64,000 nt of DNA from an uncultured Spirochaetota bacterium (GTDB taxonomy: Bacteria > Spirochaetota > Brevinematia > Brevinematales > JAOACQ01): contig CAWAOD010000005.1 in the NCBI GenBank assembly GCA_963783575.1, positions 448,001 through 512,000 on the forward strand, read 5' to 3'. Positions 10,194-34,002 of this stretch are shown here, piece after piece. The notes under the pieces are model-generated. The model was not told where the DNA came from, searched no databases, and saw nothing but the letters and a program-made list of their open reading frames with translations. Position 1 is the stretch's first letter. Every line of letters begins with the position of its first letter. The translations under genes and the position numbers were made by a program.

Positions 10194-10256
10194 TTGCGTA
10201 TATCACTCCGAAATTTGAGTAATATACGCAATGCGTATATATCGAGTTAAACGAAA
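10194..10256 (+). other. attI-like primary recombination site
   Basis: Between integrase stop and first cassette GTT (10246); inverted repeats TTGCGTATAT...ATATACGCAA and core TGCGTATA-TATCGAGT-TAAACGAAA. Confidence 0.7.
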
Positions 10257-10302
10257 TTTTTGTGCCGGTTTGTTACTTATTGAAAAATAATGAGGAATAT
10301 CA

Positions 10303-10692
10303 ATGATTATTAATGCATCAAACAGATCAGTTCATGATAATTATATTGTTAATGCTTTAATTGATATTGAAAACTCGAATATAATTTTATCCACAAAATA
10401 CGAGAATGAAAATACAGTAATATTATTTGAAAATGTTTTGTGTCACAGTTTTGAAAATATAATCAACCAAAATATTATTTTAGATATTACTGAATATAAT
10501 ATTTCAGAATTTATTGATAGAATATCGCAACATTTATTAAATAATAAAAAATATTGTGATCCTCCAATTAATTGGGAAAATATTGATGATTTAAAAACAA
10601 AATTAACAAATTTGAAATATTTTGGATATGATATTTATAGTTCAATTGGTTTGAACGGTTGGGTTATTTCAAAACAAATGATTATAAAATAA
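10303..10692 (+). CDS. Cassette 1: hypothetical protein
   Basis: ORF with GAGG RBS in cassette 10246-10732. Confidence 0.75.
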   Translation: MIINASNRSVHDNYIVNALIDIENSNIILSTKYENENTVILFENVLCHSFENIINQNIILDITEYNISEFIDRISQHLLNNKKYCDPPINWENIDDLKTKLTNLKYFGYDIYSSIGLNGWVISKQMIIK

Positions 10693-10729
10693 GAAGTTAG
10701 ATGCTTATACAGGCACAAAAACTTCGTTT

Positions 10730-10974
10730 AACAGCGGCTATATCGCTCCGGTGCTCGAAAAAACTTTTCAGGGCGTAACGGAGGAGAAAGAGAAAAGTTT
10801 TTCCTGCGCTCCTCGGGTTCGCCCGTTTTTGCTTTTAGTAAAAAGAGAAAGGGGTTCAAATTGACTATGATGATTATTAAAATAAAGGTTATTATTTACG
10901 GGCTCACCAAACCCGCAAACTTAAGCGCGCGGGGCTGGCGCTAAGGTTTGCGGGCTTCGTATAGCCGCACCGTT
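10730..10974 (+). repeat. attC-like site 1 (type A, 245 bp)
   Basis: AACAGCGGCTATATCG...CGTATAGCCGCACCGTT with internal hairpins. Confidence 0.88.
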
Positions 10975-11004
10975 CTACGCAATTTTGCAAAGGATGGTTC
11001 TATT

Positions 11005-11451
11005 ATGGATAATATAGAAAAAAGATATGATATTAAGAGTGAAAAAACAATTAGTGAAATTATACTTAAAAATGGATGGGCTGATAGAATTTATTGGGAT
11101 AGAAATGATTGGTATATTGAATGGTCTGTAAAAGGTAAAAATATATTAAATAGAATTCCTAATATTCTCAATCAAATTGATGAATTAAATGATTCTGATA
11201 AGAATTGTATAAACTTTATGGTTAACTATTTTGGTATTAATAAGATTAAAAAGGATTTTGATGAAATCACTTTAAATATGCAAGAAGAAATTATAAAAAT
11301 TATTCAGAAAAGACTAATTATGAAAATACCAGATAAAATACTTGATAGTATTAGAAAAAATGGTCGTTCATATATAGCATTAGAAATGATTTTAGATACA
11401 GTAAAATCAGAACCATTAAAAGAATTAAAAAAATATATAAAGTCTTTGTAA
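11005..11451 (+). CDS. Cassette 2: hypothetical protein
   Basis: ATG at 11005; the longer ORF call from 10948 starts inside the attC-like site. Confidence 0.7.
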   Translation: MDNIEKRYDIKSEKTISEIILKNGWADRIYWDRNDWYIEWSVKGKNILNRIPNILNQIDELNDSDKNCINFMVNYFGINKIKKDFDEITLNMQEEIIKIIQKRLIMKIPDKILDSIRKNGRSYIALEMILDTVKSEPLKELKKYIKSL

Positions 11452-11473
11452 TACGCTTTGCAAAACTGCGCAG

Positions 11474-11717
11474 AACAACGGCTATATCGCTGCGGTGCTC
11501 GAAAAAACTTTTCAGGGCGTAACGGAGGAGAAGAGAAAAGTTTTTCTTGCGCTCCTCGGGTTCGCCCGTATTTGCTTTTTGGAAAAAGAGAAAGGAGTTC
11601 AACTTGACTATGATGATTAATAAAATAAAAGTCATTGTTTACGGGCTCACCACATTTGCAAGCCTAAGCGCGCGGGGCTGGCGCTAAGGCTTGCAAACGT
11701 CGTATAGCCACACCGTT
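11474..11717 (+). repeat. attC-like site 2 (type A)
   Basis: Near-copy of site 1. Confidence 0.88.
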
Positions 11718-11758
11718 GTACGAAATGGTGCAACAACTTATTAAATTAAGGATAATTT

Positions 11759-12310
11759 ATGCCTGAAAATCAACATTTAAAATCTGCTCGTAATGATTAC
11801 AATCCTGACCCTTTTTATTTTTTTGAAGAAAATGAGACCTTCAAAAGGTATGTTGTTTATAATCCTTTTTATGATGTCATCAAAAATATTTTTATTGATA
11901 TAATTAGTAATTACAATTCTGAAATTGAAATATTATTAAAAGATTTAAAGGATTATGATGAAACAGGAAAAAAAGATATAATTTGGGATCACTACTATAC
12001 TAAAACAACAAAAGATAAAATTCTAGAAGCATTGGATGTTCATTCAAAATACATATTTTATGATGGCTATCAACAATTATGCATTAGAGATTCAATAACT
12101 GAGGATTATTTTGCTTTCGATGATCATGGTATTTTATTTATCTATTCTGAAAATAAATTGATTGAAGATATTCTAAAAAAATATAAAATTAAGAACTCTA
12201 AAAATGAATTAATTCTTGAAAAACCGCATTGGCATATAAGACCTAAAGATGCAGATGATTTAAAAATTAGTTTCATAAAAGATCTTAAAATAGATAGGTC
12301 TAATGATTAA
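11759..12310 (+). CDS. Cassette 3: hypothetical protein (paralog of cassette 13)
   Basis: Shares FKRYVVYN, FDDHGILFIY and HWHIRPKDAD with 31397-31939. Confidence 0.8.
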   Translation: MPENQHLKSARNDYNPDPFYFFEENETFKRYVVYNPFYDVIKNIFIDIISNYNSEIEILLKDLKDYDETGKKDIIWDHYYTKTTKDKILEALDVHSKYIFYDGYQQLCIRDSITEDYFAFDDHGILFIYSENKLIEDILKKYKIKNSKNELILEKPHWHIRPKDADDLKISFIKDLKIDRSND

Positions 12311-12331
12311 ATATGTTGCACCACTTCGTAC

Positions 12332-12545
12332 AACACGGCATAGCTGTTCCGCTCCGTCCTCGCGCGGCTCCGGGCGGTGCTCAGCCTTCGGCACATTTGC
12401 CTTTGTCATCTTTTTTGCATATTTTAAATTTAATAAAAAGGGTTATAAAATGAAATGCTTTAATATATTTAAAGGCTGGTTCTGGAGTTGCAAAAAAGAC
12501 GCCAATCGCTGACGCGAGCGGCAAACGTCAGCTATGCCTACCGTT
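12332..12545 (+). repeat. attC-like site 3 (type B, long)
   Basis: AACACGGCATAGCTG...CAGCTATGCCTACCGTT. Confidence 0.85.
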
Positions 12546-12596
12546 GTACGAAATGTCTTGGTGCCAAGATTTTAGTTAAAGGAGATTATTATAATT

Positions 12597-13082
12597 ATGA
12601 AAAAACAATTAAAAAAAGAACCTACTAATATTGAGTTTATTTATAGTGTTATAAATAATATTCGAGGATCGAAATTAAATTATTCTTGGCGTGATTCTGG
12701 TACTATCTTCTTCGAAATTGGAACTATCATTAAAAAAGATAATCGTAATCATCCAGAAGGAAAATTTTCTTTTATGATTGATTATCCATGGCGTTTTGAA
12801 AAAAGCAATGCTATTATCTGTTCTTCAGAATTTAGTACTACAGAAAGAGACAATTTTCTCCAAAACATAATTGGGAAATCAATATTAAATATTGATTTTG
12901 TTACATGTTGTAATGATTTAATTATTGAATTTAATGATTTAGTATTCCGGCAATTTTCAATTGAATCTGATTTACACTCTTGGTCATTACGTATCAGGAA
13001 TGAAAATAACGAATATTTAAAAAATGATGTAGATCATTTTTGGTTATCTTTTGAAGAAAAAAATTTCTTGATTGAATTTTGA
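12597..13082 (+). CDS. Cassette 4: hypothetical protein
   Basis: ORF with AAGGAG RBS inside cassette. Confidence 0.75.
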   Translation: MKKQLKKEPTNIEFIYSVINNIRGSKLNYSWRDSGTIFFEIGTIIKKDNRNHPEGKFSFMIDYPWRFEKSNAIICSSEFSTTERDNFLQNIIGKSILNIDFVTCCNDLIIEFNDLVFRQFSIESDLHSWSLRIRNENNEYLKNDVDHFWLSFEEKNFLIEF

Positions 13083-13139
13083 TAAATTAATGATTATAGA
13101 AAGAAAATAATAAAACATTGGCACCAAGCCACTTCGTAC

Positions 13140-13382
13140 AACCGCGGCTATATCGCTCCGGTGCTCGAAAAAACTTTTCCGGGCGTAACGGAGGAGAAGA
13201 GAAAAGTTTTTCCTGCGCTCCTCGGGTTCGCCCGTTTTAGATTTTGATTAAAGAGAAAGGAGTTCAACTTGACTATGATGATTATTAAAATAGAAGTCAT
13301 TATTTACAGGCTCACCACATTTTCGGGCCTAAGAGCGCGGGGCTAGCTCTAAGGCCCAAAAACGTCGTATAGCCGCACCGTT
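13140..13382 (+). repeat. attC-like site 4 (type A)
   Basis: Near-copy of site 1. Confidence 0.88.
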
Positions 13383-13462
13383 GTACGCAAGCCTGGCTGA
13401 AGCTGGTTTAAATAAAATAATTCGGCATCCTTGCCGAATAAAATAAATTAAGGGGTTTTATT

Positions 13463-14254
13463 ATGATAACAAAAATATTTTATTTTTCGACAACGGGTAA
13501 TTCATTATATGTGGCTCGCACAATAGCTGGAAAATTAGGTGAAACTGAAATTATTTCTATTCCAAAAGTTATTAAAGGACAAATTAATACAGATTCTGAA
13601 AGTGTTGGAATAATATTTCCAGTTTATGCCTGGGGACTTCCTCGAATTGTTGCCGAATTTACTGAAAAACTCAAATTAAACAAAAATCAATATGTTTTTG
13701 CAATAGCTACATGTATTGAAATGCCTGGAGCCACATTAGGACAGTTAAATAAAATTTTAAATAAAAATGGATCACATTTAAATGCTGGTTTTTTAATAAG
13801 AGAAAATTTCCGTCCAAATAGTGATAATGAAATGTCTATAGTAAAATTCATTAAAAAAGCCACAAAGATAAAGCCAATTCAATTAAAAGGGAGGCTTCAA
13901 GAAATAACAGATATTCTAAAAAATAAAAAGAAGCATAAACTGGAAATGAGTGCCAAAATGGCTCAAATTTTAGGTAATTCTTTTCATAAGGTTGCAATCA
14001 AAAAATATATGGCAGCAGATTTGAATTATAAATTGGATGAAAAATGTAATTTATGCGGTATTTGTATCAAGATATGTCCTCGTGAAAATATTAAAATGGA
14101 AAATGGAAAAATTTTATGGAATCAAAACTGTGAAGGTTGTCAAGGATGTTATCAGTGGTGTCCAAAGGAAGCGATTCATTTGACAGATGGTACAGATATA
14201 AAAGTTGGGTATCATCACCCTGAAATTGTCCTTGGAGACATTGTTTTAAGATAA
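13463..14254 (+). CDS. Cassette 5: EFR1-family flavodoxin/4Fe-4S ferredoxin
   Basis: YFSTTGNS, FPVYAWG, and two CxxCxxCxxxCP motifs. Confidence 0.88.
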   Translation: MITKIFYFSTTGNSLYVARTIAGKLGETEIISIPKVIKGQINTDSESVGIIFPVYAWGLPRIVAEFTEKLKLNKNQYVFAIATCIEMPGATLGQLNKILNKNGSHLNAGFLIRENFRPNSDNEMSIVKFIKKATKIKPIQLKGRLQEITDILKNKKKHKLEMSAKMAQILGNSFHKVAIKKYMAADLNYKLDEKCNLCGICIKICPRENIKMENGKILWNQNCEGCQGCYQWCPKEAIHLTDGTDIKVGYHHPEIVLGDIVLR

Positions 14255-14436
14255 AACTGCGGAATTTTTGTAAATTAACGCCATCCTTGGCTTGGCTTTT
14301 TGTACCGATTTTCAGCAAGGCTGGAAATGATAAACTAATTTACCAGGGTAGCAATAAATGAAATTCCCATACCTGTCACAAACAGATTTCCCATAGAGAA
14401 GCTTGAAGATTACCTTTAATGAAAATTCATTAAAGG

Positions 14437-15999
14437 ATGGCAGGAATGGTGAAAAATATTATGTATCAGGACATAAAAAAACTGAAACTTTTGGGGAAAA
14501 GTAAAAATGGTGTATCCCGGGAACTGTCAATAGATATTAAGACAGTCCGGAAATATTGGACTATGAACGATGCTGAATACCAGAAAAGCCTGATGGAATT
14601 CTCTTTCCGTGAAAAAGAATTCGAAGGAATAAAAACAGATATATTGAAAGTATATGCAAAGAATGATTACATCCGGCTGAATATGTCTGCTTTGTATGAC
14701 TATTTATTGGAGGTAAAAGGCAAACTACCGGCGAATGAAAATACGATGAGGAATTTCGTACATTACCTGATTGAAAGCGGGCAGCTTACCTTGAATGAAA
14801 AGCGACGGTATTACACAAAAGTGCCTGACATGCCATATGGAAAGCAGCTCCAGCTTGATTTCGGTCAATATACCGACAGATATGGCAGAAGGTATTACAT
14901 ATTTGCCGCGGTGTTATCCGCCAGTCGTTTTAAGTATGCGGCCCTCCAGGAGAGGCCATTCCGGACAGAAGACCTGATCAATCATCTGTTGGACTGTTTC
15001 GCATATATGGGCGGGATACCGCATGAACTTGTCATCGATCAGGACTGCACGATGGTTGCGAGTGAGAACTCAGGCGATATCATCTACACGAAAGACTTTC
15101 AGTATTTCATCGGGGAAATGGGTCTTAAAATGTATGTGTGCCGACCTGCTGACCCGGAAAGTAAGGGAAAGATTGAAAACGTAGTCAAATTCATCAAGCA
15201 CGGTTTCTTCTCAGTCCGGGAGTTCAACAGTTTAATGGAAGCGGAAGAAAGCCTGATGAAATGGCTGGAAAGAAAAGCCAACGGGAGAATATCCCAGGCT
15301 ACAATGAAAATACCACTGATAGAGATTGAAACGGAAAGACCATATCTCCAATCTGTCAGGAATTCGATATTCCGTAAAGACAGGATAGGAGCAAGGGAAG
15401 AGCGCAGTGTAAGCGATAAATGCCGGATCGCAGTTGATGCAAGCCAGTATGATATTCCCGAAAAATACAGGAACGGTTCGGTGGACATCTACAAGACGGG
15501 CAGTCGGCTTTTTGTCTTTGACAGGATAACGGGAGAGCAAATCGCCGAATACCGGCTTTCAGTGATTCCGGGGCAGATTGTAACCAACAGGGCAATGATC
15601 CGGGAAATGGGAAAGAGTGTGCAGTTATTGAAAGAAGAAGTAAGCGGGTACTTTGATATTCCCGGCTGGAAGGATTTTCTTGAATGTAATTTCAGGAAGT
15701 TCAATCGTTATGTAAGGGACCAATGTCTTTCCGGAAGAAAATACTTCAGGGACAAGATAATTGATACCGGGAAGCTTACACAAGCGATCTCAAACTGCCT
15801 GGAGAGTGATAGTTATTCCATGAAGGATTTGTGGGATAATTACCTGAACTGTTTTATAACAGAAAAGGCAGAAATACCCTTGAATGTTGAAAAGATTGTC
15901 AGGCCTTCAGTGAATCCTGAACACTATCTTGAAGTAGCTAAATCAGACATCGGGAAATACCAGAGTTTCTGTGACTCCATCGGGGGCCGGCAATGTTGA
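14437..15999 (+). CDS. istA: IS21 transposase
   Basis: QLDFG, VIDQD and PESKGKIENVVK motifs. Confidence 0.92.
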   Translation: MAGMVKNIMYQDIKKLKLLGKSKNGVSRELSIDIKTVRKYWTMNDAEYQKSLMEFSFREKEFEGIKTDILKVYAKNDYIRLNMSALYDYLLEVKGKLPANENTMRNFVHYLIESGQLTLNEKRRYYTKVPDMPYGKQLQLDFGQYTDRYGRRYYIFAAVLSASRFKYAALQERPFRTEDLINHLLDCFAYMGGIPHELVIDQDCTMVASENSGDIIYTKDFQYFIGEMGLKMYVCRPADPESKGKIENVVKFIKHGFFSVREFNSLMEAEESLMKWLERKANGRISQATMKIPLIEIETERPYLQSVRNSIFRKDRIGAREERSVSDKCRIAVDASQYDIPEKYRNGSVDIYKTGSRLFVFDRITGEQIAEYRLSVIPGQIVTNRAMIREMGKSVQLLKEEVSGYFDIPGWKDFLECNFRKFNRYVRDQCLSGRKYFRDKIIDTGKLTQAISNCLESDSYSMKDLWDNYLNCFITEKAEIPLNVEKIVRPSVNPEHYLEVAKSDIGKYQSFCDSIGGRQC

Positions 16000-16742
16000 A
16001 GATAAGAGAACAAATCATAACTGCGCTTACAACTCTCGGGTTGAAGGGTATGATAAAACGGATTGATGAGGAAATTGGTGAGGCTGAAAAGGCAAAAGAG
16101 TCTTATCTGAGTTTTCTGCAGAGGCTGCTTTCTCTGGAATTGAATTATAGAGTGGAAAAACGTTTTCAGCGGAATATGGCAGGAGCACACTTCCCGGTCC
16201 GCAAAGATGTGGAAGGTTTTAATTTTGAAAAAGTGAATGGAATATCTAAAATGGATGTTTCACAGCTATTGGATTTCTGCTGGATTGATAATCATCATAA
16301 CCTGTTGTTCTTTGGGTCTCCGGGGCTGGGGAAAACGCATCTGGCAATTAGTATCGGAATCCGGGCAGTTGAAAAGGGATATATTGTCTGCTTTGAAAGG
16401 ATGACTACTCTCATTAAGTTTCTGAAAACGGCGGACATCCAGAGAAGCTCTGCTTTCAGGCTGAACCGGATGATGAAGTCACACTTATTAATCATTGATG
16501 AGATAGGTTACACACCTATCGAAAAGAAGGAGGCAAATCTATTCTTTAGTCTTGTAAGTGAATTGTATGAAAAGACATCAATTGTGATAACATCGAATAA
16601 GGGATTTCAGGATTGGGCTGAAATGATGGGAGACCCGATTATGACAACCGCTCTTCTGGATAGGCTTTTACATCATTCAAATATTTATAACTTGAGCGGA
16701 GAATCTTACAGAATACAAAATTTGAATAAGGAGGTTGAGTAA
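15993..16742 (+). CDS. istB: IS21 helper ATPase
   Basis: GSPGLGKTHLA, LIIDEIGY, ALLDRLLHH, GESYR. Confidence 0.94.
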   Translation: MLKIREQIITALTTLGLKGMIKRIDEEIGEAEKAKESYLSFLQRLLSLELNYRVEKRFQRNMAGAHFPVRKDVEGFNFEKVNGISKMDVSQLLDFCWIDNHHNLLFFGSPGLGKTHLAISIGIRAVEKGYIVCFERMTTLIKFLKTADIQRSSAFRLNRMMKSHLLIIDEIGYTPIEKKEANLFFSLVSELYEKTSIVITSNKGFQDWAEMMGDPIMTTALLDRLLHHSNIYNLSGESYRIQNLNKEVE

Positions 16743-16896
16743 CCATTCTTTGCCTCCTCACTATGGGAAATACTCACGTGGAAGGTATGGGGAAAACTCT
16801 TGTGAAGCATATGGGAAATACTCTTGTGGAAGGGGTGGGAAATTACCCGAGCGCAGATATGGGAAAAACTCTTGACATTTCCAAAGGCCAGCGTAC

Positions 16897-17048
16897 AACA
16901 GCGGCTATACGCTGCGGTGCGTCCTCGCGGGGCTCCGGGCGCTCCTCGGTCCTGCGGACACATTTTGCTTTGTCACGGCTTTTGCTGCGTGGGATGCAAA
17001 AGCCGCGCCAACCCTACGGGACGCAAAACGTCGTATAGCCGCACCGTT
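16897..17048 (+). repeat. attC-like site 5 (152 bp)
   Basis: AACAGCGGCTATACG...CGTATAGCCGCACCGTT. Confidence 0.85.
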
Positions 17049-17544
17049 AAACGAAAGTACGTTCGCCAGCTTAATAATTTAATGAGGTATTATGACAAAT
17101 AAAAATTTTACAAACAATGTTTTTAATAAGTTGGTTAAAAATGAAAATACTTTAACTGAATGTTTTAGAAATTTATTAGGATATAAATCATTTTTGAAAT
17201 TATTCCTTCTATTTTTAAAAAATAAATGTGGTGATATATCTTTTTCTTCAGATGAAATTGAGACACAAAAAGACTTATCTGAATATGGAAAACCTGATAT
17301 TTATATTGAAAACAATAAAACGGTAATTATTATTGAGAATAAACTTAAGTATACTTCATTAACAAATAATCAACCCTTATCATATTTACAATACTTAATA
17401 AACAATGATAAGCAATTTAAGTATTTAATCTTTATTATATCAAAAGTCTACATCCACTTAAATGAGCTAAATAATATTATTAAAGAAACTGATTCTGTTA
17501 TACCAATAAAACTTGTGTTTTGGGAAGATTTTTTAGATCAACTA

Positions 17545-18677
17545 GTGCTTAATTGCGTAAGTTAACGATAGTATTTCTTAATTGAGAACCTTTCACTTCC
17601 CGTTTTCTCCACACAAAAGGTTTTGCGGTTTCAGTGTATGCTTTAACAAATGCATCTATTGCTTCTCTCAATTCTTCCGTGTTTTTAAAACTGGCGCCTC
17701 TAAGAGCTTTTCGGCTCATAATACCAAACCATATTTCCACCTGATTTAACCAACTTGCCGAAGTAGGCGTGTAATGAAAAAAAACATTCTTATTCCGGGA
17801 TAACCATTCATCGTTCTTTTTGTGAATACAATAATTGTCTAAAATTACATGAATTTCTTTATCTTTTGAAACATCTACCACCACTCTATCCATAAACTCA
17901 AGAAATTCAATACGTCTTTTGTATTCAGTAGTTTGGGTGTGTATTAACCCTGTAGCTACTTCCAGCGCAGCAAATAGGTTCAGCGTTCCATTTCTTTTAT
18001 ATGTACTTTTGTATCCTCTTACAATTTTTCCATTATCCGTCTCTACATAGCCGGTTGTCCTTTCCAACGCTTGAATACCAGGTTTTTCGTCTACAGATAT
18101 AACCAATGCATTCATCGGCGGATTTAAATACAACCCAATAATATTTGTGGCTTTTGTCGAAAATTCAGGATCAGTGCTGACACACCAACTTCGCTGTCGG
18201 GATAAGCAAATTCCTTCTTTTCTTAAAACCCTCCATACCGCATGCGTTGATGTGTTTAAATGTTTTGCTAAAGCCGGACCATCCCAAATTGCCTGCCCGA
18301 TAGGCGGTGTTTTTTCCAGAGTTTCTAAAACTTTGTCCCTGAAATTCTGCCCATATATTTTTGGCTTTCCTGACCTGGGCAGATCATACAATCCATCAAT
18401 TCCTTTTTGCTGAAATCTTTTTTTCCAATCAATAACCGTATTTGGTCTTATGTGAAGGTCAGCCGCAATCTCAGATACATTTTGTCCTTTCAGGCTATTG
18501 ACAATTATTTTCGCCCTCTCTACAAGTCGCGCTTCCATAGTTCGGCTTCTCACCCAACTATCAAGAATAATTTCATCCGCTTTGGTGCATGTTATAACTT
18601 GCGTTTTCTTAGACATACAACCTCCTTTTTTATGTCTAAGATTATAATTAATAACGCTTATTATTGCAATTAAGCAC
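17545..18677 (-). mobile_element. IS630-family insertion sequence
   Basis: TIRs GTGCTTAATTGC / GCAATTAAGCAC flanked by duplicated TA (in CTAG context). Confidence 0.92.
17549..18616 (-). CDS. IS630 transposase
   Basis: SVDEKPGIQAL, ILDNYCIHK and TPTSASWLNQVEIWF motifs. Confidence 0.93.
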   Translation of the reverse strand: MSKKTQVITCTKADEIILDSWVRSRTMEARLVERAKIIVNSLKGQNVSEIAADLHIRPNTVIDWKKRFQQKGIDGLYDLPRSGKPKIYGQNFRDKVLETLEKTPPIGQAIWDGPALAKHLNTSTHAVWRVLRKEGICLSRQRSWCVSTDPEFSTKATNIIGLYLNPPMNALVISVDEKPGIQALERTTGYVETDNGKIVRGYKSTYKRNGTLNLFAALEVATGLIHTQTTEYKRRIEFLEFMDRVVVDVSKDKEIHVILDNYCIHKKNDEWLSRNKNVFFHYTPTSASWLNQVEIWFGIMSRKALRGASFKNTEELREAIDAFVKAYTETAKPFVWRKREVKGSQLRNTIVNLRN

Positions 18678-19201
18678 TAGATCAAAGTGGCCTTTGTGAA
18701 ATAAATCCAATTATTTTTGATTTTAGATTAATTATGAAAAAGTGGTTTTATGTTTGTGAAATTGTATTTTCAATGGAGGATATTGAAATGATTGATAATA
18801 GACAAATTCCAGAGTTAATTATAAAAATCTATTCTGTAATTAATGATGTAAAAAATAATTTAGAAAATTATAATACATCAAATTTGGAAGAAAGGCCACC
18901 CGATGCAACAACAACAGGCTTTTATATTAAAGATGAAAATAAAAATATCATTTTATGGTTTGGAACTTGGTTTGATTTATGGAAAGAGAAAGGCTTTTCA
19001 CTAGCATTTGGTTTACATAAAGATACTGATAATATTATTCTGGATAAATTTAATACTTGCTTTAAAGATAAAATATTTCAATATGATGATTGGTTATTAT
19101 GTGGTATTGACAAATTAATTCTGGAAGATAAGAAACCAGTTGATAATATACTTGAACTACTAAATAACTATTTGTAAAACATGGCGAACCTACCTTCGTT
19201 T

Positions 19202-20285: not shown

Positions 20286-20305
20286 ACACGGCCAAAACTG
20301 CATTT

Positions 20306-24873: not shown

Positions 24874-24897
24874 TTATATTAATAAGGCACTGCGCAC

Positions 24898-25050
24898 AAC
24901 AGCAAGTCAGCGGTTGCGCTCGAGTACTCGCTCCACCCAAATCGCCGGGCTGGTTGAAAGCAATTAAATATGTTAATTTTTATAAATGCTTTTTGATATA
25001 ATATTTACAGCTTAATTAAATACCGGCGACTTCGCCGACTTGCACCCGTT
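24898..25050 (+). repeat. attC-like site 10 (type C, divergent)
   Basis: AACAGCAAGTC...GACTTGCACCCGTT; internal TCGCCGG/CCGGCGA stem. Confidence 0.8.
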
Positions 25051-25164
25051 GTACGAAAATTTCCGGGCCGAAGCTGATGATATTACTTTTCCGGCGTCCT
25101 TGCCGGAAAAATGATTTATTATTTAAAATGTATTAGAATTTATATCGATTAGTAGAGGTTTTAA

Positions 25165-26439
25165 ATGGCATTATTATCAGAAATTGAATCTGCACTAATG
25201 CTTGGAATTACAGTTGAATTATTAAATTCATATACAAAATATTGTCCAAAATCTGGCGAAAATGTTAAATTAAAATATAAAATAGTAAAAGGTATAAAAC
25301 ATTTTGAAAAAGATGATATTCTATTTTATCATAAATATTTAAACAGTCCGTGGCCTATGCCAAAAAAAGGAGAAAGACCATATATTCCTAAAGCAATCCA
25401 AGATTTTATAAAGTTTGAATCACATTATTCCTGTTCAATTTGCGGTCATATGGATAATGGTGAAATAGCACATATTGAAGCAGTTTCAACAACACTAAAT
25501 AATAGTCCAGATAATCTTATTTATTTATGTCCAAATCATCATACAAAATATGATTATGGTTACAAACCTAATAGTAATGTTACATTAGAAGAAATTCGTG
25601 CTTCAAAACTTTTAAAAAGAAATGCTTTACAAAGAGTGATGAAATATGAGTCTAATACAGTTAAATTATTAAAAGTTACATTATTAAACATAAAATCAAT
25701 CAGTGAAAAACTAGCCTTTGAAAGTGATAAAACAATGCTAGAGATTTATAATGTTGAATTACAAAACATTGTGAAGAATTTACCAGAATATATAGATAAA
25801 GCAAATGATGACGCAAAAAAAGATATAAGTTTAGTAAATGAAAAAGAACTATTATCTAAAAATGCACCAAATTTAATAAAATATTCAAATATAATAATAA
25901 AAGATTCTTCTTTGTTCAAAACATCCGTTGACTCAATAATCAAGATTTCTAACGAAATATTTATTGATTTAGATGAATATCCCTGTCCTCATTGTGGAGG
26001 AAGCGGACTAACAGGATTACTCGGTGATATATGTGTTTATTGTAAAGGTTCTTGTGTAGTCTCAAAGCAAATGGTTAATAGTTATGACTCTAATAAAATT
26101 GATGAAGTTGAATGTCCTCATTGTGGAGGAAGCGGACTAACAGGATTACTCGGTAATATATGTATTTATTGTAAAGGTTCTCGTAGAGTATCTCATAAAA
26201 AGTTTGATCAGTATGATCCAGATAAAATCGATGAAGTTGATTGCCCTCGTTGTGGGGGAAGCGGACTAACAGGATTACTCGGTGATATATGTACTTATTG
26301 TAAAGGTTCTCGTAGAGTATCTCATAAAAAGTTTGATGAGTATGATCCCGATGAAACCAATGAAGTTGAATGTCCTCATTGTAGGGGAAGTGGTCTATCA
26401 GGATTAGTCGGTAATGTATGTAAATTATGTAAAGGTTAA
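25165..26439 (+). CDS. Cassette 11: HNH endonuclease with four C-terminal CxxCxGxG zinc-finger repeats
   Basis: CSICG...EIAHI...NLIYLCPNHHTKYD; repeats CPHCGGSGLTGLLGDICxYCKGS. Confidence 0.8.
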   Translation: MALLSEIESALMLGITVELLNSYTKYCPKSGENVKLKYKIVKGIKHFEKDDILFYHKYLNSPWPMPKKGERPYIPKAIQDFIKFESHYSCSICGHMDNGEIAHIEAVSTTLNNSPDNLIYLCPNHHTKYDYGYKPNSNVTLEEIRASKLLKRNALQRVMKYESNTVKLLKVTLLNIKSISEKLAFESDKTMLEIYNVELQNIVKNLPEYIDKANDDAKKDISLVNEKELLSKNAPNLIKYSNIIIKDSSLFKTSVDSIIKISNEIFIDLDEYPCPHCGGSGLTGLLGDICVYCKGSCVVSKQMVNSYDSNKIDEVECPHCGGSGLTGLLGNICIYCKGSRRVSHKKFDQYDPDKIDEVDCPRCGGSGLTGLLGDICTYCKGSRRVSHKKFDEYDPDETNEVECPHCRGSGLSGLVGNVCKLCKG

Positions 26440-26566
26440 TGTGTTGTAACTAAGATAGTATATAAAGAATATATCAAGAAATATGGAACTATTGGCGATT
26501 AAAGCCTCCGCCGTCCTGGGCTCCGGCTTTTTGCTTAAACATTCGGCCCGGAAAACATCGTACAAC

Positions 26567-28361
26567 GGCCTTGTAGAAAAAGTTAATTTCAGGTAATAAT
26601 CCTCCATTCCCAAACAGTTTGTTTTTTTTGATCTGTCTGGAATTACTTTATTTATATAAAACCGGGCTGAATTTACCGGCAAAGCTGCTTTTATTCCATC
26701 ACTATGCCATTATATCCCTCCATAGACCTGAATTTTCCCGATATTGTGCACAGTATTATATAATACCCATTGAATATTCACTTTTCCCTTTCCCCTCAGC
26801 GTAAATCGATCCATACCTTTACATGCCCTTATATTCCCGAATACAGGCTCAACTATAGCCATTCTTTTCGCATAAAGCTTTCTGCCTTAAGGTGTATCTA
26901 TGAACTTTCTCATTTCGTCCGAGTAATGTCTGTTATCCGCATTCAATGGCCTTTGCAACATCGTGTTGCTGTCGAACTAACGTTCGACGGCCTTTTTGGC
27001 TATATAGTAGCTCTTATGGAACCTCCGTGTTCCCAAGGTTGTTTGATTTTATTTTAATTCTTCAGGAAGTCTTTCCGGAATGGACAATTACGGCAGGACA
27101 ATAACCGGCAGATATACTTCGCATATGTAATATGATTCACCGTATGGTTATATCTGAACCTGAGTTCCTCTCCTTTCTTGCATATATAAACATTATTTTC
27201 CGGATCATATTGAAAATCATCAATTGTATACTGCCCTTTCTTCGCAGGCTTATGTCTGTCAGCGGTTTCAAACCTGCAATCGCGCTTCCTGAAATTCGTA
27301 TCCGGGATGACCGGTTTCATACCGTTTTGCGAAATATATTTCAGGTTCTTTTCGCTGAAATAATTGGTGTCCGCAGTGATTATTTTATCCTTTAAATCTT
27401 TTCCCAATTCTACTTTTGCTTTACGGATCATCCCTTTCAGGAATTCCCCCTCAGACCCGCTCCCAAAAGCTTCGGGATATACCACAACCTGATACTTCGA
27501 ATCCACTACAGAAAGTCCGTTGTAGCCCTGGATAACACCATGTGAACTCTTTATTTTCGCACTCTCGTTGTCAGTGACATTGGACTGCTTTTCACCATGC
27601 CGTGCCTTGTTTTTGGGTTTTTCACTTTCCAGAAACTTTTCTATCTTTTCCGCTTTCTTTAAAATCTTCTCGATCCGTGCCAGATCTTTTTCCTTATCCT
27701 TCTCAGGAAAACCGCCGGCCTGATCACGCTTTTCATGTTCATCAAGCATTTCCTTAACCAGGTTTTCCAGCTTCTCTTTTTTCTTCTTCAAATCCTTAAA
27801 TGTTCCGCTCCATTCCTTTGATGCATTTGACGATAGTTTGCACCCGTCCAGCGCGAACATATCCCCGCCTATGAGATTCAGTTCGTCACAAACCATTAAT
27901 ATATTCAGGAATACGGTATTTATCTCATTTTTCATCGATGATACAAAATCGGCGATGGAAGTAAAGTGCGGTATTGAATTGGCGGAAATGGCTTTGGCTA
28001 TAATATTCGTTTTACACAAATACTCGATTTCACGTGATGTAAAAATACCGCGGGAATAGCTGTAGAGTATTATTTTGAGCATAACCCGCGGATTATAAGC
28101 CGGGGCACCGGTAGCATCGTTCTTATACTTATTCTCAAAGATTTTAAGATCAATTCTGTTGTCAACAAGAAAACTGAGTGTATATTCAAATGTTCCCGGT
28201 ATAATCTGCTCATCGAATGAGACAGGTATGAGTTCCATTTGATCGTAATTAACTTTCTTATATCTTGCCATAATTGCTTTTACCTCTTGATTTTATTTCC
28301 AATATATTTTAAAGTATATACGATATTCTGTACATGAATGACGGACTTTTTCTACAGGCTC
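26567..28361 (-). mobile_element. IS1182-family element, copy 1, inserted at attC AAC core
   Basis: TIRs GGCCTTGTAGAAAAAGT / ACTTTTTCTACAGGCTC; (C)AAC duplicated. Confidence 0.9.
27054..28271 (-). CDS. IS1182 transposase N-terminal part; C-terminal part 26710-26961 has an extra stop in this copy
   Basis: GAPAYNPRVMLKIILY, FALDGCK, SNVTDNES, QGYN, TADTNY. Confidence 0.85.
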   Translation of the reverse strand: MARYKKVNYDQMELIPVSFDEQIIPGTFEYTLSFLVDNRIDLKIFENKYKNDATGAPAYNPRVMLKIILYSYSRGIFTSREIEYLCKTNIIAKAISANSIPHFTSIADFVSSMKNEINTVFLNILMVCDELNLIGGDMFALDGCKLSSNASKEWSGTFKDLKKKKEKLENLVKEMLDEHEKRDQAGGFPEKDKEKDLARIEKILKKAEKIEKFLESEKPKNKARHGEKQSNVTDNESAKIKSSHGVIQGYNGLSVVDSKYQVVVYPEAFGSGSEGEFLKGMIRKAKVELGKDLKDKIITADTNYFSEKNLKYISQNGMKPVIPDTNFRKRDCRFETADRHKPAKKGQYTIDDFQYDPENNVYICKKGEELRFRYNHTVNHITYAKYICRLLSCRNCPFRKDFLKN

Positions 28362-28516
28362 AACAGCGCGTAGACGCTGCGCTCCTCGGCTATCGCTAAG
28401 GCGACCGGCTGCGGCCTTAGCCTGCGGTGCTCGGGCTTCGCCAAATTTGCCTTTGGCACACATTTTTGCAAAGCAAAAAGATGTGACAAAGGCAAACTTC
28501 GTCTACGCGAACCGTT
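28362..28516 (+). repeat. attC-like site 11 (separated from its cassette by IS1182)
   Basis: AACAGCGCGTAGACG...CGTCTACGCGAACCGTT. Confidence 0.83.
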
Positions 28517-28575
28517 GTACGCCATATCGTCCAGCAAAATTGAATTATACAAATAATAATACAAATAATATGTAC

Positions 28576-28604
28576 TTGACATCATAAATAAAAAATGATA
28601 TAGT
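28576..28604 (+). promoter_or_regulatory. Sigma70-type promoter of TA cassette
   Basis: TTGACA-17 nt-TATAGT with TGn extension; ATG follows after 5 nt. Confidence 0.7.
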
Positions 28605-28609
28605 TATTT

Positions 28610-28972
28610 ATGTGGATTATTGATAGATCTGAAGAAATAATTAAATGGATTCAAGGATTGGATGATGATGCAAAGGAATCAATATTACAGCATTTGATTA
28701 TTCTAAAAAATATTGGACCTTCTTTAGGAAGACCATATGTTGACTTAATTGATGAAAGTAAACATAAGAATATGAAAGAATTAAGGGTTCAAAATAAAAA
28801 AAGAGCTTTTAGAATATTCTTTGCCTTTGATCCTGAAAGAAAAGCAATCTTATTAATTGGTGGAGATAAAAAAGGCAATAAAAATTTCTACAAAGAAATA
28901 ATACCAAAAGCAGATAATTTATATGACATACATTTAAAAGAATTGGAGAAAAAATATGAAAGAAAAAGTTAG
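28610..28972 (+). CDS. Cassette 12: RelE/ParE-like (Gp49/HigB-type) toxin
   Basis: GPSLGRPYVD...MKELRVQ...RIFFAFDPERKAILLIGGDK. Confidence 0.9.
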   Translation: MWIIDRSEEIIKWIQGLDDDAKESILQHLIILKNIGPSLGRPYVDLIDESKHKNMKELRVQNKKRAFRIFFAFDPERKAILLIGGDKKGNKNFYKEIIPKADNLYDIHLKELEKKYERKS

Positions 28973-29279
28973 TAAGAGAGACTTTTTAGATGAATTATCA
29001 AATACTCTCTCTCCTGAAAGAGTTGAAAGAGCTAAAACAAATGCTGATAAAGAAATATTTAAGATCAGATTGTCAGAATTAAGAAAACAAATGGGAGTTA
29101 AACAAGAAGAAATAAAATCCTTTTCTCAATCCAGTATATCCAGAATAGAATCAAGAAAAGATATGAAAGTTTCAACTCTTATTGAATATTTAGAAGATAT
29201 TGGAATGGGTCTTGAAATTAAAGTATATCCAAAAAAAAGAAGTAATAAAAACAAAGAAGTAACATTATTGCGAGTCTGA
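28956..29279 (+). CDS. Cassette 12: XRE-HTH antitoxin
   Basis: LSELRKQMGVKQ...SQSSISRIESRKDMKVSTL; overlaps toxin gene. Confidence 0.88.
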   Translation: MKEKVSKRDFLDELSNTLSPERVERAKTNADKEIFKIRLSELRKQMGVKQEEIKSFSQSSISRIESRKDMKVSTLIEYLEDIGMGLEIKVYPKKRSNKNKEVTLLRV

Positions 29280-29455
29280 TTCTACCGACAGCTGGACGAT
29301 ACGGCGTACAACGGCCTTGTAGAAAAAGTTAATTTCAGGTAATAATCCTCCATTCCCAAACAGTTTGTTTTTTTTGATCTGTCTGGAATCACTTTTTTTT
29401 TATAAAACCGGGCTGAATTTACAGGCAAAACTGTTTTTATTCCATCACTATGCCA

Positions 29456-29707
29456 TTATATACCTCCATAGACCTGAATTTTCCCGATATTGTGCACAGT
29501 ATTATATAATACCCATTGAATATTCACTTTTCCCTTTCCCCTCAGCGTAAATCGATCCATACCTTTACATGCCCTTATATTCCCGAATACAGGCTCAACT
29601 ATAGCCATTCTTTTCGCATAAAGCTTTCTGCCTTCAGGCGTATCTATGAACTTTCTCATTTCGTCCGAGTAATGTCTGTTATCCGCATTCAATGGCCTTT
29701 GCAACAT
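29456..29707 (-). CDS. IS1182 transposase C-terminal part
   Basis: YAKRMAIVEPVFGNIR...FTLRGKGKVNIQW...VHNIGK. Confidence 0.75.
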   Translation of the reverse strand: MLQRPLNADNRHYSDEMRKFIDTPEGRKLYAKRMAIVEPVFGNIRACKGMDRFTLRGKGKVNIQWVLYNTVHNIGKIQVYGGI

Positions 29708-29799
29708 CGTGTTGCTGTCGAACTAACGTTCGACGGCCTTTTTGGCTATATAGTAGCTCTTATGGAACCTCCGTGTTCCCAAGGTTGTTTGATTTTATT

Positions 29800-31017
29800 T
29801 TAATTCTTCAGGAAGTCTTTCCGGAATGGACAATTACGGCAGGACAATAACCGGCAGATATACTTCGCATATGTAATATGATTCACCGTATGGTTATATC
29901 TGAACCTGAGTTCCTCTCCTTTCTTGCATATATAAACATTATTTTCCGGATCATATTGAAAATCATCAATTGTATACTGCCCTTTCTTCGCAGGCTTATG
30001 TCTGTCAGCGGTTTCAAACCTGCAATCGCGCTTCCTGAAATTCGTATCCGGGATGACCGGTTTCATACCGTTTTGCGAAATATATTTCAGGTTCTTTTCG
30101 CTGAAATAATTGGTGTCCGCAGTGATTATTTTATCCTTTAAATCTTTTCCCAATTCTACTTTTGCTTTACGGATCATCCCTTTCAGGAATTCCCCCTCAG
30201 ACCCGCTCCCAAAAGCTTCGGGATATACCACAACCTGATACTTCGAATCCACTACAGAAAGTCCGTTGTAGCCCTGGATAACACCATGTGAACTCTTTAT
30301 TTTCGCACTCTCGTTGTCAGTGACATTGGACTGCTTTTCACCATGCCGTGCCTTGTCTTTGGGTTTTTCACTTTCCAGAAACTTTTCTATCTTTTCAGCT
30401 TTCTTTAAAATCTTCTCGATCCGTGCCAGATCTTTTTCCTTATCCTTCTCAGGAAAACCGCCGGCCTGATCACGCTTTTCATGTTCATCAAGCATTTCCT
30501 TAACCAGGTTTTCCAGCTTCTCTTTTTTCTTCTTCAAATCCTTAAATGTTCCGCTCCATTCCTTTGATGCATTTGACGATAGTTTGCACCCGTCCAGCGC
30601 GAACATATCCCCGCCTATGAGATTCAGTTCATCGCAAACCATCAGTATATTAAGGAATATGGTATTTATCTCATTTTTCATCGAAGAAACAAAATCGGCG
30701 ATTGAAGTAAAGTGCGGTATTGAATTGGCGGAAATGGCTTTGGCTATAATATTCGTTTTACACAAATATTCGATTTCACGTGATGTAAAAATACCGCGGG
30801 AATAGCTGTAGAGTATTATCTTCAGCATAACCCGCGGATTATAAGCCGGGGCACCGGTAGCATCGTTCTTATACTTATTCTCAAAGATTTTAAGATCAAT
30901 TCTGCTGTCAACAAGAAAACTGAGTGTATATTCAAATGTTCCCGGTATAATCTGCTCATCGAATGAGACAGGTATGAGTTCCATTTGATCGTAATTAACT
31001 TTCTTATATCTTGCCAT
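29800..31017 (-). CDS. IS1182 transposase N-terminal part
   Basis: Near-identical to 27054-28271. Confidence 0.85.
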   Translation of the reverse strand: MARYKKVNYDQMELIPVSFDEQIIPGTFEYTLSFLVDSRIDLKIFENKYKNDATGAPAYNPRVMLKIILYSYSRGIFTSREIEYLCKTNIIAKAISANSIPHFTSIADFVSSMKNEINTIFLNILMVCDELNLIGGDMFALDGCKLSSNASKEWSGTFKDLKKKKEKLENLVKEMLDEHEKRDQAGGFPEKDKEKDLARIEKILKKAEKIEKFLESEKPKDKARHGEKQSNVTDNESAKIKSSHGVIQGYNGLSVVDSKYQVVVYPEAFGSGSEGEFLKGMIRKAKVELGKDLKDKIITADTNYFSEKNLKYISQNGMKPVIPDTNFRKRDCRFETADRHKPAKKGQYTIDDFQYDPENNVYICKKGEELRFRYNHTVNHITYAKYICRLLSCRNCPFRKDFLKN

Positions 31018-31107
31018 AATTGATTTCCCCTCTTGATTTTATTTACAATATATTTTAAAGTATAACCGTTATTTTGTACATGAATGACGGACTTTTTCTA
31101 CAGGCTC

Positions 31108-31351
31108 AACAGCGGCTATATCGCTCCGGTGCACGAAAAAACTTTTAAAGGCGTAACGGAGAAGAAGAGAAAAGTTTTTCCTGCGCTCCTCGGGTTCGCC
31201 CGTTTTTGCTCTAAGTTAAAAGAGGAAGGAGTTCAAATTGACTATGATAATTAATAAAATAGAAGTTATTGTTTACGGGCTCACCACATTTGCAAGCCTA
31301 AGCGCGCGGGGCTTGCGCTAAGGCTTGCAAACGTCGTATAGCCGCACCGTT
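31108..31351 (+). repeat. attC-like site 12 (type A)
   Basis: Near-copy of site 2, follows IS copy 2. Confidence 0.87.
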
Positions 31352-31396
31352 GTACGAAATGGTGCAACGCTTTTTAATATAATTTAAGGAGTATTT

Positions 31397-31939
31397 GTGA
31401 ACAATGATCCAATGAAATCAGCTAGAGAAGATTATAAACCTACTCCATTTTACTTTTCTGAAGAAAATAATAATTTTAAAAGATATGTTGTTTATAACAA
31501 TTCATTTGAAATCATTAAACAACTATTAAAAGAAATAATAAGTTCCTATGATAATATAATAGAAATATTATTAAAAGATTCTCAAGGTTATGATGATAAA
31601 AAGGAAGAAGATATTTGGGACAGATATTATTCAGAAACCACAAAAGAAAACATTTTAAAATTACTTGAAATTCATTCAAAATATATTTTCTTTGATGGAA
31701 ATAATCAATTATGCATAAAAGATTCATCAACTGGTGATTATATTTCTTTTGATGATCATGGAATTTTATTTATTTATACTGATAAGTTTATTGATGACTT
31801 ATTATTAAAAAATGGAATAGAAAAAAAGAAAAATGAATTAATTTATGATCAAGGTCATTGGCATATAAGACCAAAAGATGCTGATGTATTAATGAATAAT
31901 TTTATTAAGGACTTACAATTAAAAAAGCTTGAAGATTAA
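31397..31939 (+). CDS. Cassette 13: hypothetical protein (paralog of cassette 3)
   Basis: AAGGAG RBS then GTG; similar to 11759-12310. Confidence 0.8.
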   Translation: MNNDPMKSAREDYKPTPFYFSEENNNFKRYVVYNNSFEIIKQLLKEIISSYDNIIEILLKDSQGYDDKKEEDIWDRYYSETTKENILKLLEIHSKYIFFDGNNQLCIKDSSTGDYISFDDHGILFIYTDKFIDDLLLKNGIEKKKNELIYDQGHWHIRPKDADVLMNNFIKDLQLKKLED

Positions 31940-31963
31940 ACATGTTGCGCCACTTCGCACAAC

Positions 31964-33338
31964 GGCCTTGTAGAAAAAGTTAATTTCAGGTAATAATCCT
32001 CCATTCCCAAACAGTTTGTTTTTTTTGATCTGTCTGGAATCACTTTTTTATATAAAACCGGGCTGAATTTACCGGCAAAACTGCTTTTATTCCATCACTA
32101 TGCCATTATATACCTCCATAGACCTGAATTTTCCCGATATTGTGCACAGTATTATATAATACCCATTGAATATTCACTTTTCCCTTTCCCCTCAGCGTAA
32201 ATCGATCCATACCTTTACATGCCCTTATATTCCCGAATACAGGCTCAACTATAGCCATTCTTTTCGCATAAAGCTTTCTGCCTTCAGGTGTATCTATGAA
32301 CTTTCTCATTTCGTCCGAGTAATGTCTGTTATCCGCATTCAATGGCCTTTGCAACATCGTGTTGCTGTCGAACTAACGTTCGACGGCCTTTTTGGCTATA
32401 TAGTAGCTCTTATGGAACCTCCGTGTTCCCAAGGTTGTTTGATTTTATTTTAATTCTTCAGGAAGTCTTTCTGGAATGGACAATTACGGCAGGCCGATAA
32501 CCGGCAGATATACTTCGCGTATGTAATGTGATTCACCGTATGGTTATATCTGAACCTGAGTTCCTCTCCTTTCTTGCATATATAAACATTATTTTCCGGA
32601 TCATATTGAAAATCATCAATTGTATACTGCCCTTTCTTCGCAGGCTTATGTCTGTCAGCGGTTTCAAACCTGCAATCGCGCTTCCTGAAATTCGTATCCG
32701 GGATGACCGGTTTCATACCGTTTTGCGAAATATATTTCAGGTTCTTTTCGCTGAAATAATTGGTGTCCGCAGTGATTATTTTATCCTTTAAATCTTTTCC
32801 CAATTCTACTTTTGCTTTACGGATCATCCCTTTCAGGAATTCCCCCTCAGACCCGCTCCCAAAAGCTTCGGGATATACCACAACCTGATACTTCGAATCC
32901 ACTACAGAAAGTCCGTTGTAGCCCTGGATAACACCATGTGAACTCTTTATTTTCGCACTCTCGTTGTCAGTGACATTGGACTGCTTTTCACCATGCCGTG
33001 CCTTGTCTTTGGGTTTTTCACTTTCCAGAAACTTTTCTATCTTTTCAGCTTTCTTTAAAATCTTCTCGATCCGTGCCAGATCTTTTTCCTTATCCTTCTC
33101 AGGAAAACCGCCGGCCTGATCACGCTTTTCATGTTCATCAAGCATTTCCTTAACCAGGTTTTCCAGCTTCTCTTTTTTCTTCTTCAAATCCTTAAATGTT
33201 CCGCTCCATTCCTTTGATGCATTTGACGATAGTTTGCACCCGTCCAGCGCGAACATATCCCCGCCTATGAGATTCAGTTCATCGCAAACCATCAGTATAT
33301 TAAGGAATATGGTATTTATCTCATTTTTCATCGAAGAA
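31964..33338 (-). mobile_element. IS1182-family element, copy 3 (transposase 5' end deleted)
   Basis: Begins after CACAAC; ORFs 32450-33331 and 32106-32357; fused directly to the right part of an attC-like site. Confidence 0.87.
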
Positions 33339-33401
33339 CCCGCAAACCTAAGCGCGCGGGGCTGGCGCTAAGGTTTGCGGGCTTCGTATAGTCGAGCCGT
33401 T
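33339..33401 (+). repeat. Right remnant of attC-like site 13
   Basis: CCCGCAAACCTAAGCGCGCGGGGCTGGCGCTAAGGTTTGCGGGCTTCGTATAGTCGAGCCGTT matches the end of site 1. Confidence 0.83.
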
Positions 33402-33453
33402 GTACGCCATTCAATGTGAACTATATCCCTATTCCTAAGTTTTTAAATTTTAA

Positions 33454-33482
33454 TTGACAAATTTATAAATATGTATTACTAT
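33454..33482 (+). promoter_or_regulatory. Sigma70-type promoter of second TA cassette
   Basis: TTGACA-17 nt-TACTAT. Confidence 0.6.
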
Positions 33483-33490
33483 GTTTACAT

Positions 33491-33760
33491 ATGGTATATT
33501 ATGAAGAAGATGTGGAAAAAAATTTGTCTAAAGGTAAAATTCCACAAGATGTTTTTGTCCACATGAATAATGCTTTTATTTCTATTGATTCGACTAAAGA
33601 TTTAACTTTATTCGATATTAAAAAGCTGATATCTAAAAAAAAAACAGCTTATTACAGGTTAAGAAAAGGAAAATATAGGGCTATTTTTTATTTAGAAGAT
33701 GATAGTGTGTATGTTATTAAAATTTCAAAAAGGGAGGATGTGTACAAAAAATGGGAGTAA
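33491..33760 (+). CDS. Cassette 14: RelE-family toxin
   Basis: DIKKL...YYRLRKGKYRAIF...ISKREDVYK. Confidence 0.85.
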   Translation: MVYYEEDVEKNLSKGKIPQDVFVHMNNAFISIDSTKDLTLFDIKKLISKKKTAYYRLRKGKYRAIFYLEDDSVYVIKISKREDVYKKWE

Positions 33761-34002
33761 TCTCAGTTCGTTTCAATCCAAAAGAAGAAAAAGTTCTTAA
33801 TTATTTGTCTAAATATTATGATAAAGAAAAATCATCGCTGATAAAACAAGCATTGATAGATATGTATGAAGATATAGTTGATCGTGAGGAAATAGATAAA
33901 TTTTTGATTAGAAAGGAAAAAGGGAAGATTAGTTTTAAATCAGCTGATGAAATACTGGATGCACAGGGCACGGCGCACAACGGCCTTATAGAAAAAGTCT
34001 AA
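33751..34002 (+). CDS. Cassette 14: RHH (RelB/DUF6290-like) antitoxin
   Basis: VISVRFNPKEE...SSLIKQAL...YEDIVD; reads through the cassette end into the IS remnant. Confidence 0.75.
   Translation: MGVISVRFNPKEEKVLNYLSKYYDKEKSSLIKQALIDMYEDIVDREEIDKFLIRKEKGKISFKSADEILDAQGTAHNGLIEKV

Follow-up and report, generated by a model that had tools for sequence, protein, structure and literature searches.

The 64,000-nucleotide stretch of DNA analysed here (the window) belongs to the genome of an uncultured Spirochaetota bacterium (G000; contig CAWAOD010000005.1, positions 448,001 to 512,000), and carries a tyrosine recombinase gene, an attI-like site and an integron-like array of 14 gene cassettes. The two ends of each cassette are inverted copies of one another, broken at the eleventh base counted from the leading GTT, where A in the left arm faces C in the right arm. 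This mismatch is real, highly conserved and, within the samples surveyed, specific to one family of recombinases. On the bottom strand it becomes a T·G wobble. Judged from sequence, there is about an even chance that the mismatch is a recognition mark that helps a recombinase without the IntI insertion to choose strand and orientation.

Integrons are understood to choose the strand through extrahelical bases that an IntI-specific domain reads. Because the arrays described here are uniformly oriented and adjoin recombinases without that domain, another rule must operate, and the position-11 mismatch is the most conserved candidate for it in the outer binding arm, testable by a single base change. 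The features of the window (window coordinates, strand in brackets, with the bases at position 11 of both arms) are as follows.

9129..10193 (+), tyrosine recombinase gene, co-oriented with the array, without the IntI-specific insertion, two frameshifts in this assembly
10193..10248 (+), attI-like site with an inverted box at 10230-10239, a 6-nt spacer and a crossover inferred at G|TT 10246-10248
10246..10732 (+), cassette 1, A 10256 : C 10722
10733..10971 (+), attC body 1, 239 nt, predicted branched hairpin with a short inner stem
10972..11476 (+), cassette 2, A 10982 : C 11466
11477..11714 (+), attC body 2, 238 nt
11715..12334 (+), cassette 3, homologue of cassette 13, A 11725 : C 12324
12335..12542 (+), attC body 3, 208 nt
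12543..13142 (+), cassette 4, A 12553 : C 13132
13143..13379 (+), attC body 4, 237 nt
13380..16899 (+), cassette 5, EFR1 ferredoxin with an IS21 insertion sequence (IS) element inside, A 13390 : C 16889
16900..17045 (+), attC body 5, 146 nt
17046..19204 (+), cassette 6, PD-(D/E)XK protein broken by IS630, plus a second open reading frame (ORF), A 17056 : C 19194
19205..19409 (+), attC body 6, 205 nt
19410..20308 (+), cassette 7, A 19420 : C 20298
20309..20546 (+), attC body 7, 238 nt
20547..21198 (+), cassette 8, ankyrin repeats, A 20557 : C 21188
21199..21435 (+), attC body 8, 237 nt
21436..24172 (+), cassette 9, ResIII-type helicase with an HNH domain, A 21446 : C 24162
24173..24318 (+), attC body 9, 146 nt
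24319..24900 (+), cassette 10, A 24329 : C 24890
24901..25047 (+), attC body 10, 147 nt
25048..26566 (+), cassette 11, HNH plus DnaJ-type zinc fingers, A 25058 : C 26556
26567..28513 (+), attC body 11, IS1182 element inserted directly after the AAC of the cassette
28514..29312 (+), cassette 12, Gp49/RelE-type gene and a second ORF, likely a toxin-antitoxin pair, A 28524 : C 29302
29313..31348 (+), attC body 12, IS1182 after AAC
31349..31963 (+), cassette 13, A 31359 : C 31953
31964..33398 (+), attC body 13, 5' part replaced by a truncated IS1182
33399..33981 (+), cassette 14, an ORF and a RelB-type antitoxin, A 33409 : C 33971, followed by an IS1182-like end

All 14 cassettes lie on the recombinase strand, each starting with GTT and ending with AAC, and their ends form inverted repeats of about 21 bp. 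An earlier note on this DNA had reported A in the left arm and C in the right arm at position 11 of every one of them, which is the case in 14 of 14, and the 14 left arms are all mutually different. Pairing within the arms is otherwise nearly complete, averaging 9.4 of 10 at positions 1-10 and 8.6 of 10 at positions 12-21. In this distal part it falls to 3.0 of 10 between different cassettes and to 2.6 of 10 at array junctions; being cassette-specific, it allows a complete stem only where a cassette's own two ends are brought together, as they would be in an excised circle, a point that the earlier note did not make. A:C was found at only 5 of the other 238 arm positions (4-21 without 11), so that its presence at position 11 in 14 of 14 cassettes is not due to chance. 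The remark in the same note that several other mismatches are also A:C finds no enrichment behind it in the window, where 29 mismatches include five A:C and four G:T or T:G. In the wider survey, 26 mismatches were A:C or C:A and two were G:T or T:G (129 cassettes, positions 4-17 without 11), the C:A mismatches lying mostly at position 10. A motif-seeded scan of the whole genome found A:C in 24 of 24 cassettes, 12 of them inside the window.

The survey covered 143 loci around relatives of the recombinase and the 18 contigs of G000, with a detector that is blind to positions 10 and 11 and requires its matches to be chained; the orientation of each array was taken from the summed strand of its ORFs, independently of the mismatch. 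The blind scan gave 145 matches in 33 sequences (13 of them from G000), which correspond to 133 distinct cassettes in 35 arrays. Besides G000, they represent 22 further genomes from seven families of its phylum, a single contig of Patescibacteria and four contigs from metagenomes. A:C occupies position 11 in 129 of the 133. The other four comprise two from locus L218, where the orientation vote was a near tie (-4) and the flanks read the opposite way, one A:T pair in locus L031, and one likely false match in locus L168; L168, L218 and one IS-broken site of G000 are left out of the totals of 82 sites and 129 cassettes used below. None of the 35 arrays was of mixed polarity. A natural experiment was sought in the form of inverted cassettes or many perfectly paired ones, and none was found among these arrays, where the L031 cassette was the one perfect pair. 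As the genomes surveyed are related to one another, these figures are counts and not a statistical test.

Loci from two further phyla (those of G402, Bacteroidetes, and of G401, Patescibacteria) were scanned with a relaxed blind detector, orientation being judged from the recombinase coordinates. There were 32 matches in 14 of 40 loci, of which 30 were A:C and two A:A; the same loci after shuffling gave no matches, as did the remaining 26 of the 40 real ones. The strict detector found chains in just two of the 40 loci, because the arms in these phyla are about 15 bp long. Conservation of position 11 in other arrays, which the earlier note had named as one of the points on which its proposal could fail, is thus confirmed by 129 of 133 distinct cassettes and 30 of 32 matches.

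The conservation is specific to the position. Positions 12-17 vary freely in sequence and yet pair in 127-131 of 133 cassettes, and position 11 is the sole non-paired position among the first 14 in 80 of 129, so that it is usually the only feature that makes the outer stems of the top and bottom strands differ. In all three real exceptions (A:T once, A:A twice) the A of the left arm is retained and its partner alone has changed. Position 10, too, lacked a pair in 32 of 133 cassettes, and the right-arm base was A in every one of them (A:A in 21, C:A in 11), which places a T beside the wobble G on the bottom strand.

A mismatch of fixed polarity might also be a scar of cassette genesis, if an assembly step copied one arm from the other and always left C opposite A. 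Some copying or repair process does seem to be needed, given that the cassette-specific distal arm is mirrored perfectly at both ends. Cassettes 3 and 13 of the window, however, have diverged to 71-75% identity and have changed at other arm positions while keeping position 11, and the transition that would restore pairing was found in only one distinct cassette across three phyla, which points to ongoing selection. The scar is accordingly given little probability.

In folds predicted with DNA energy parameters, the bottom strand of the circle form is favoured in 81 of 82 sites, by a mean of 6.2 kcal/mol. This bias, together with the 1.24 G:T mispairs per bottom strand against 0.39 per top strand tabulated for 263 attC sites in the available portion of PMC5027507, might suggest a purely thermodynamic function, in which the wobble, like the G:T mispairs of classical attC sites, gives the bottom strand a more favourable fold than the top. 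Such a function is improbable: an in silico Watson-Crick pair at position 11 removed 1.0 of the 6.2 kcal/mol and left the bottom strand favoured in 79 of 82 sites (in the window, the predicted bias was kept without the wobble in 10 of 10), and an effect on stability would not confine the mismatch to one position, whereas A:C is rare in the rest of the arm (11 in 129 cassettes). Circle-form sites are also predicted to be 12.5 kcal/mol more stable than array junctions, a difference that would favour integration over excision.

Genuine IntI loci served as controls. At 41 loci at or near canonical IntI genes, an attC detector that missed most class 1 cassettes recovered eight (a stricter first version recovered one), and A:C was present at position 11 in none of these eight canonical-IntI cassettes. 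All eight were paired at position 8 and two at position 9, the arms pairing to position 8-12. The canonical array L103 (G095:C77, 1136-5600) has self-complementary arms of 14-20 bp, with a Watson-Crick pair at position 11 in four of four cassettes. Long arms are therefore not unique to the insertion-less system, and the fixed mismatch was seen only with the latter. The same array bears on the possibility that the mismatch is a palindrome breaker, limiting the length of perfect stem and so protecting circles or replication intermediates from hairpin nucleases or stable misfolding. The longest unbroken paired run has a median of 10 bp, and would have 17 bp with position 11 paired, as such a function would predict; but L103 retains perfect arms of 15 bp, at least 68 nt of attC body separates the arms, and neither the fixed identity of the mismatch nor its polarity would be explained. 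Palindrome breaking is considered very improbable.

The recombinases that adjoin mismatch arrays are set apart by what their sequences lack. The IntI insertion of about 35-40 residues (the I2 region) is missing from all 25 of them and from the window copy, where 31 residues stand in place of the 73 of VchIntIA (2A3V). Their KDR-to-HxLR spacing is 58-64 residues in 25 of 25, against 98-100 in 15 of 18 canonical IntI proteins, the other three not being measurable. The helix before HxLR, which from Xer structures is presumed to contact the outer binding arm, starts with arginine in 24 of the 25 (lysine in the other) and in none of the 18 canonical proteins. In a tree of 24 insertion-less and 18 canonical proteins, with gap columns trimmed and one short protein left out, the canonical clade was separated with support 1.0; as the tree has no outgroup, it separates the groups and does not order events. 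The best family matches of the window recombinase include TIGR02249 and 2A3V. Its 212-amino-acid piece, the only one scored, reached 161 bits against a cut-off of 265 for TIGR02249, 180 against 220 for XerA, 138 against 330 for XerD and 137 against 335 for XerC, and the structure model of an intact homologue matched XerA (Z 21.7) and VchIntIA (Z 19.7). Of 401 genomes sampled from the same phylum, 158 have a relative of this recombinase, as do 37 of 121 and 15 of 81 genomes of two other phyla. Arrays lie either downstream of the recombinase gene and co-oriented with it, or upstream and divergent, and this adjacency suggests that the recombinases act on them.

The N-terminal 70 or so amino acids of the window recombinase (encoded by 9129-9340) are weakly HARP-like (PF07443, E value 3e-3, below the cut-off), as is the N-terminal module of the L005 homologue (E value 1e-4, also below the cut-off). 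The top Foldseek match of the module was the HARP domain of SMARCAL1, which is likewise weak (E value 0.027), and comparison with the HARP fold gave a VIA Z of 4.0 (root-mean-square deviation 2.6, 49 residues aligned, rank 32). The module is present in many members of the family. The Patescibacteria proteins lack it and still keep the mismatch, which indicates that the mark is independent of the module.

Directly after the stop codon of the window recombinase, an inverted box, a 6-nt spacer and GTT make up a putative attI site, whose layout is common to other array heads and where the crossover, by analogy with integrons, probably lies at G|TT. Extra copies of the box occur at 10223-10232 and 10193-10202. 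The base before GTT is A for cassette 1 and C for the other 13, and 19 sites with A before GTT were taken as attI on the strength of that base; in 15 of 20 attI-like sites the arm motif recurs, inverted, at a distance of 6 or 7 nt from GTT. That A at position 11 is simply the consensus of a binding box was rejected, as the position varies in double-stranded boxes. Seven attI-like leaders with the same core are present in G000 (C4 26903, C5 114990, C5 458232 in the window, C9 129786, C9 382272, C13 218537 and C16 120169), along with only one close recombinase match, the frameshifted copy of the window.

How the mismatch could act as a recognition mark may be envisaged as follows. A cassette would excise as a circle, and its bottom strand would fold into a mimic of a double-stranded Xer-type site, with a binding arm of about 11 bp and a spacer of 6-7 nt at attI. 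The cassette would then be inserted by a single strand exchange with attI at G|TT, which replication would resolve, as it does for classical attC sites and for CTX phage with XerCD. If the arms of the 15-21 bp inverted repeat were perfect, the two hairpins, top and bottom, would by symmetry not differ in their outer stems; the mismatch, whose A is always on the attI-proximal end, would break this symmetry near the edge of the binding arm. At position 11, the strand destined for cleavage would carry T both in double-stranded attI, as an A:T pair, and in the bottom hairpin, as a T·G wobble that leaves the stem closed, whereas in the top hairpin it would carry C in an open A·C. By reading position 11, the cleaving subunit could favour bottom-strand exchange at G|TT and hence the correct orientation of the gene. 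C is the only substitution whose complement still pairs with the T of the cleaved strand, and the retention of the left-arm A in the exceptions fits a read-out of that T. The mark would act jointly with three asymmetries on the inner side of the site, replacing the extrahelical-base and I2 system of classical integrons.

A rather unlikely variant would leave strand choice to those inner asymmetries and make the shape of the T·G wobble, or flexibility at positions 10-11, a requirement for efficient binding or activation on the hairpin. It would account for a partner that is nearly always C (G on the bottom strand) and not just any base other than T, for the frequent lack of pairing at position 10 (32 of 133) and for the conservation of the inner asymmetries; yet the R box of attI, which the same enzyme would have to cut, has an ordinary A:T there, and the A:T and A:A exceptions occur in arrays.

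Several observations weigh against the proposed recognition mark. All 82 internal junctions have C before GTT, and in 81 of them this C faces A or T. In 82 of 85 sites, two to four extra bases are present on the R' side of the spacer. Past an 8-bp L stem there is a C/T mismatch (paired in 6 of 61 sites) and then a bulge, with pairing resumed in 41 and 46 of the 61 once a two-base bulge is allowed on the R'' side; the L stem is continuous in 61 of 82 registered sites, the bulge lying beyond it, and one extra base inside the stem was found in a subset (family f15, genus g37 and three window sites). These three conserved inner-side asymmetries could set strand choice alone, and in classical sites, according to the available part of PMC2727003, the central spacer can impose it without extrahelical bases. 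The single cassette with a perfect A:T pair, the first of the L031 array (G011, 17585-18859), is correctly oriented. Position 11 is not fixed in the other double-stranded boxes near attI, where L boxes have T in six, A in four, C in three and G in two, and same-strand extra boxes have A in 14 of 29; its read-out must therefore be special to the cleaving subunit, which is an added assumption. The canonical control is small, at 12 cassettes from five loci, the action of the recombinases on the arrays is deduced from adjacency, and the window's own copy is frameshifted. The earlier note had suggested that the mismatch may be the determinant of strand selection or recognition. A contribution of this kind fits a feature that is conserved, absent from the controls and usually the only asymmetry of the outer stem; to call it the determinant is too strong in view of its 1.0 of 6.2 kcal/mol, the inner asymmetries and the L031 cassette, and a role as sole strand determinant is unlikely.

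These arrays may tentatively, and with somewhat less than even confidence, be regarded as a second widespread class of integron, in which an Xer-like recombinase without I2 picks strand and orientation by means of a single T·G wobble at a fixed place in a long outer stem. If so, single-strand cassette recombination can dispense with a protein domain regarded as essential for it, a mark encoded in the DNA taking its place, and a one-base switch becomes available for testing integron function before or without I2.

The window and the rest of G000 have some further features of note. No Rfam family matches the window at gathering thresholds. The attC bodies of 205-239 nt share a conserved segment that is rich in A and T and includes promoter-like hexamers. 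Cassettes 3 and 13 are homologues that have diverged to 71-75% identity, their arms being near-identical, and cassette 11 recurs at C9 384706-386224 with arms and length unchanged. Defence-like cargo includes the ResIII-type helicase-HNH protein (21521-24079) and the HNH protein with DnaJ-type zinc-finger repeats (25165-26439). IS1182-type ends lie directly behind the AAC that ends a cassette at 26567, 29313, 31964, 33982 and 36304 in the window and on other contigs of the genome, and of the 29 loose matches that the left end has in G000, 22 are preceded by AAC; the right end restores CAAC ahead of the attC body. A perfect inverted duplication about 3.4 kb across (C6 13892-17324) is possibly an assembly artefact.

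Like classical integrons (class 1, Vibrio VchIntIA and the reverse-oriented integrons of Treponema), this system has a tyrosine recombinase beside an attI-like site, a single-orientation array of cassettes bounded by GTT and AAC (14 in the window, 35 arrays in all), and a bottom strand that is predicted to be the more stable fold (81 of 82). Unlike them, its recombinases are without the IntI insertion, and its arms, 15-21 bp long, have A:C fixed at position 11. In place of the classical spacer of 5 or 6 nt its sites carry two to four extra bases on the R' side, and most are without a single extrahelical base in the L stem, where classical sites have an extrahelical G inside L''. As far as can be told from sequence, the system appears to work like an integron while lacking two defining classical features, the IntI insertion and the 5/6-nt spacer with an extrahelical G. 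The available portions of two studies describe self-pairing of classical cassettes past the 7-nt R boxes to 9-11 nt (PMC2727003) and enrichment of G:T mispairs on classical bottom strands (PMC5027507), with no fixed position given in either. The literature search, from which supplements and most subscription papers were outside the scope, returned no description of the mark or of insertion-less arrays, and the accessible text of PMC8618304 and PMC7439510 adds nothing further on them.

The integration of CTX phage offers a precedent for strand recombination without I2. XerCD integrate a folded single strand without I2-like domains, its stem mimicking double-stranded DNA (PMC4792948), at dif, which has 11-bp arms and a 6-bp centre (PMC5357621). 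To judge from the accessible parts of these papers and of PMC4246890, CTX attP(+) and the system proposed here are alike in the folded single strand, the stem that mimics double-stranded DNA and the favouring of integration over excision. They differ in that CTX uses two host recombinases and the chromosomal dif site, with no cassette array or dedicated recombinase, and the available descriptions of CTX mention no fixed mismatch in the outer arm.

Among simple tyrosine recombinases, Smyshlyaev et al. (2021) distinguish an integron-like subgroup and call the insertion essential for integron function; the accessible text of that work describes no arrays or sites for insertion-less members. A search based on the IntI domain would class the arrays reported here with CALIN, clusters of attC sites without an integron integrase (Cury et al. 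2016; PMC4889954, in the portion available), and the mismatch can serve as an exact sequence signature in the search for cassette arrays to which IntI-based tools would assign no integrase. Unlike CALIN, arrays of the window type are adjoined by a consistent family of recombinases and by an attI-like site.

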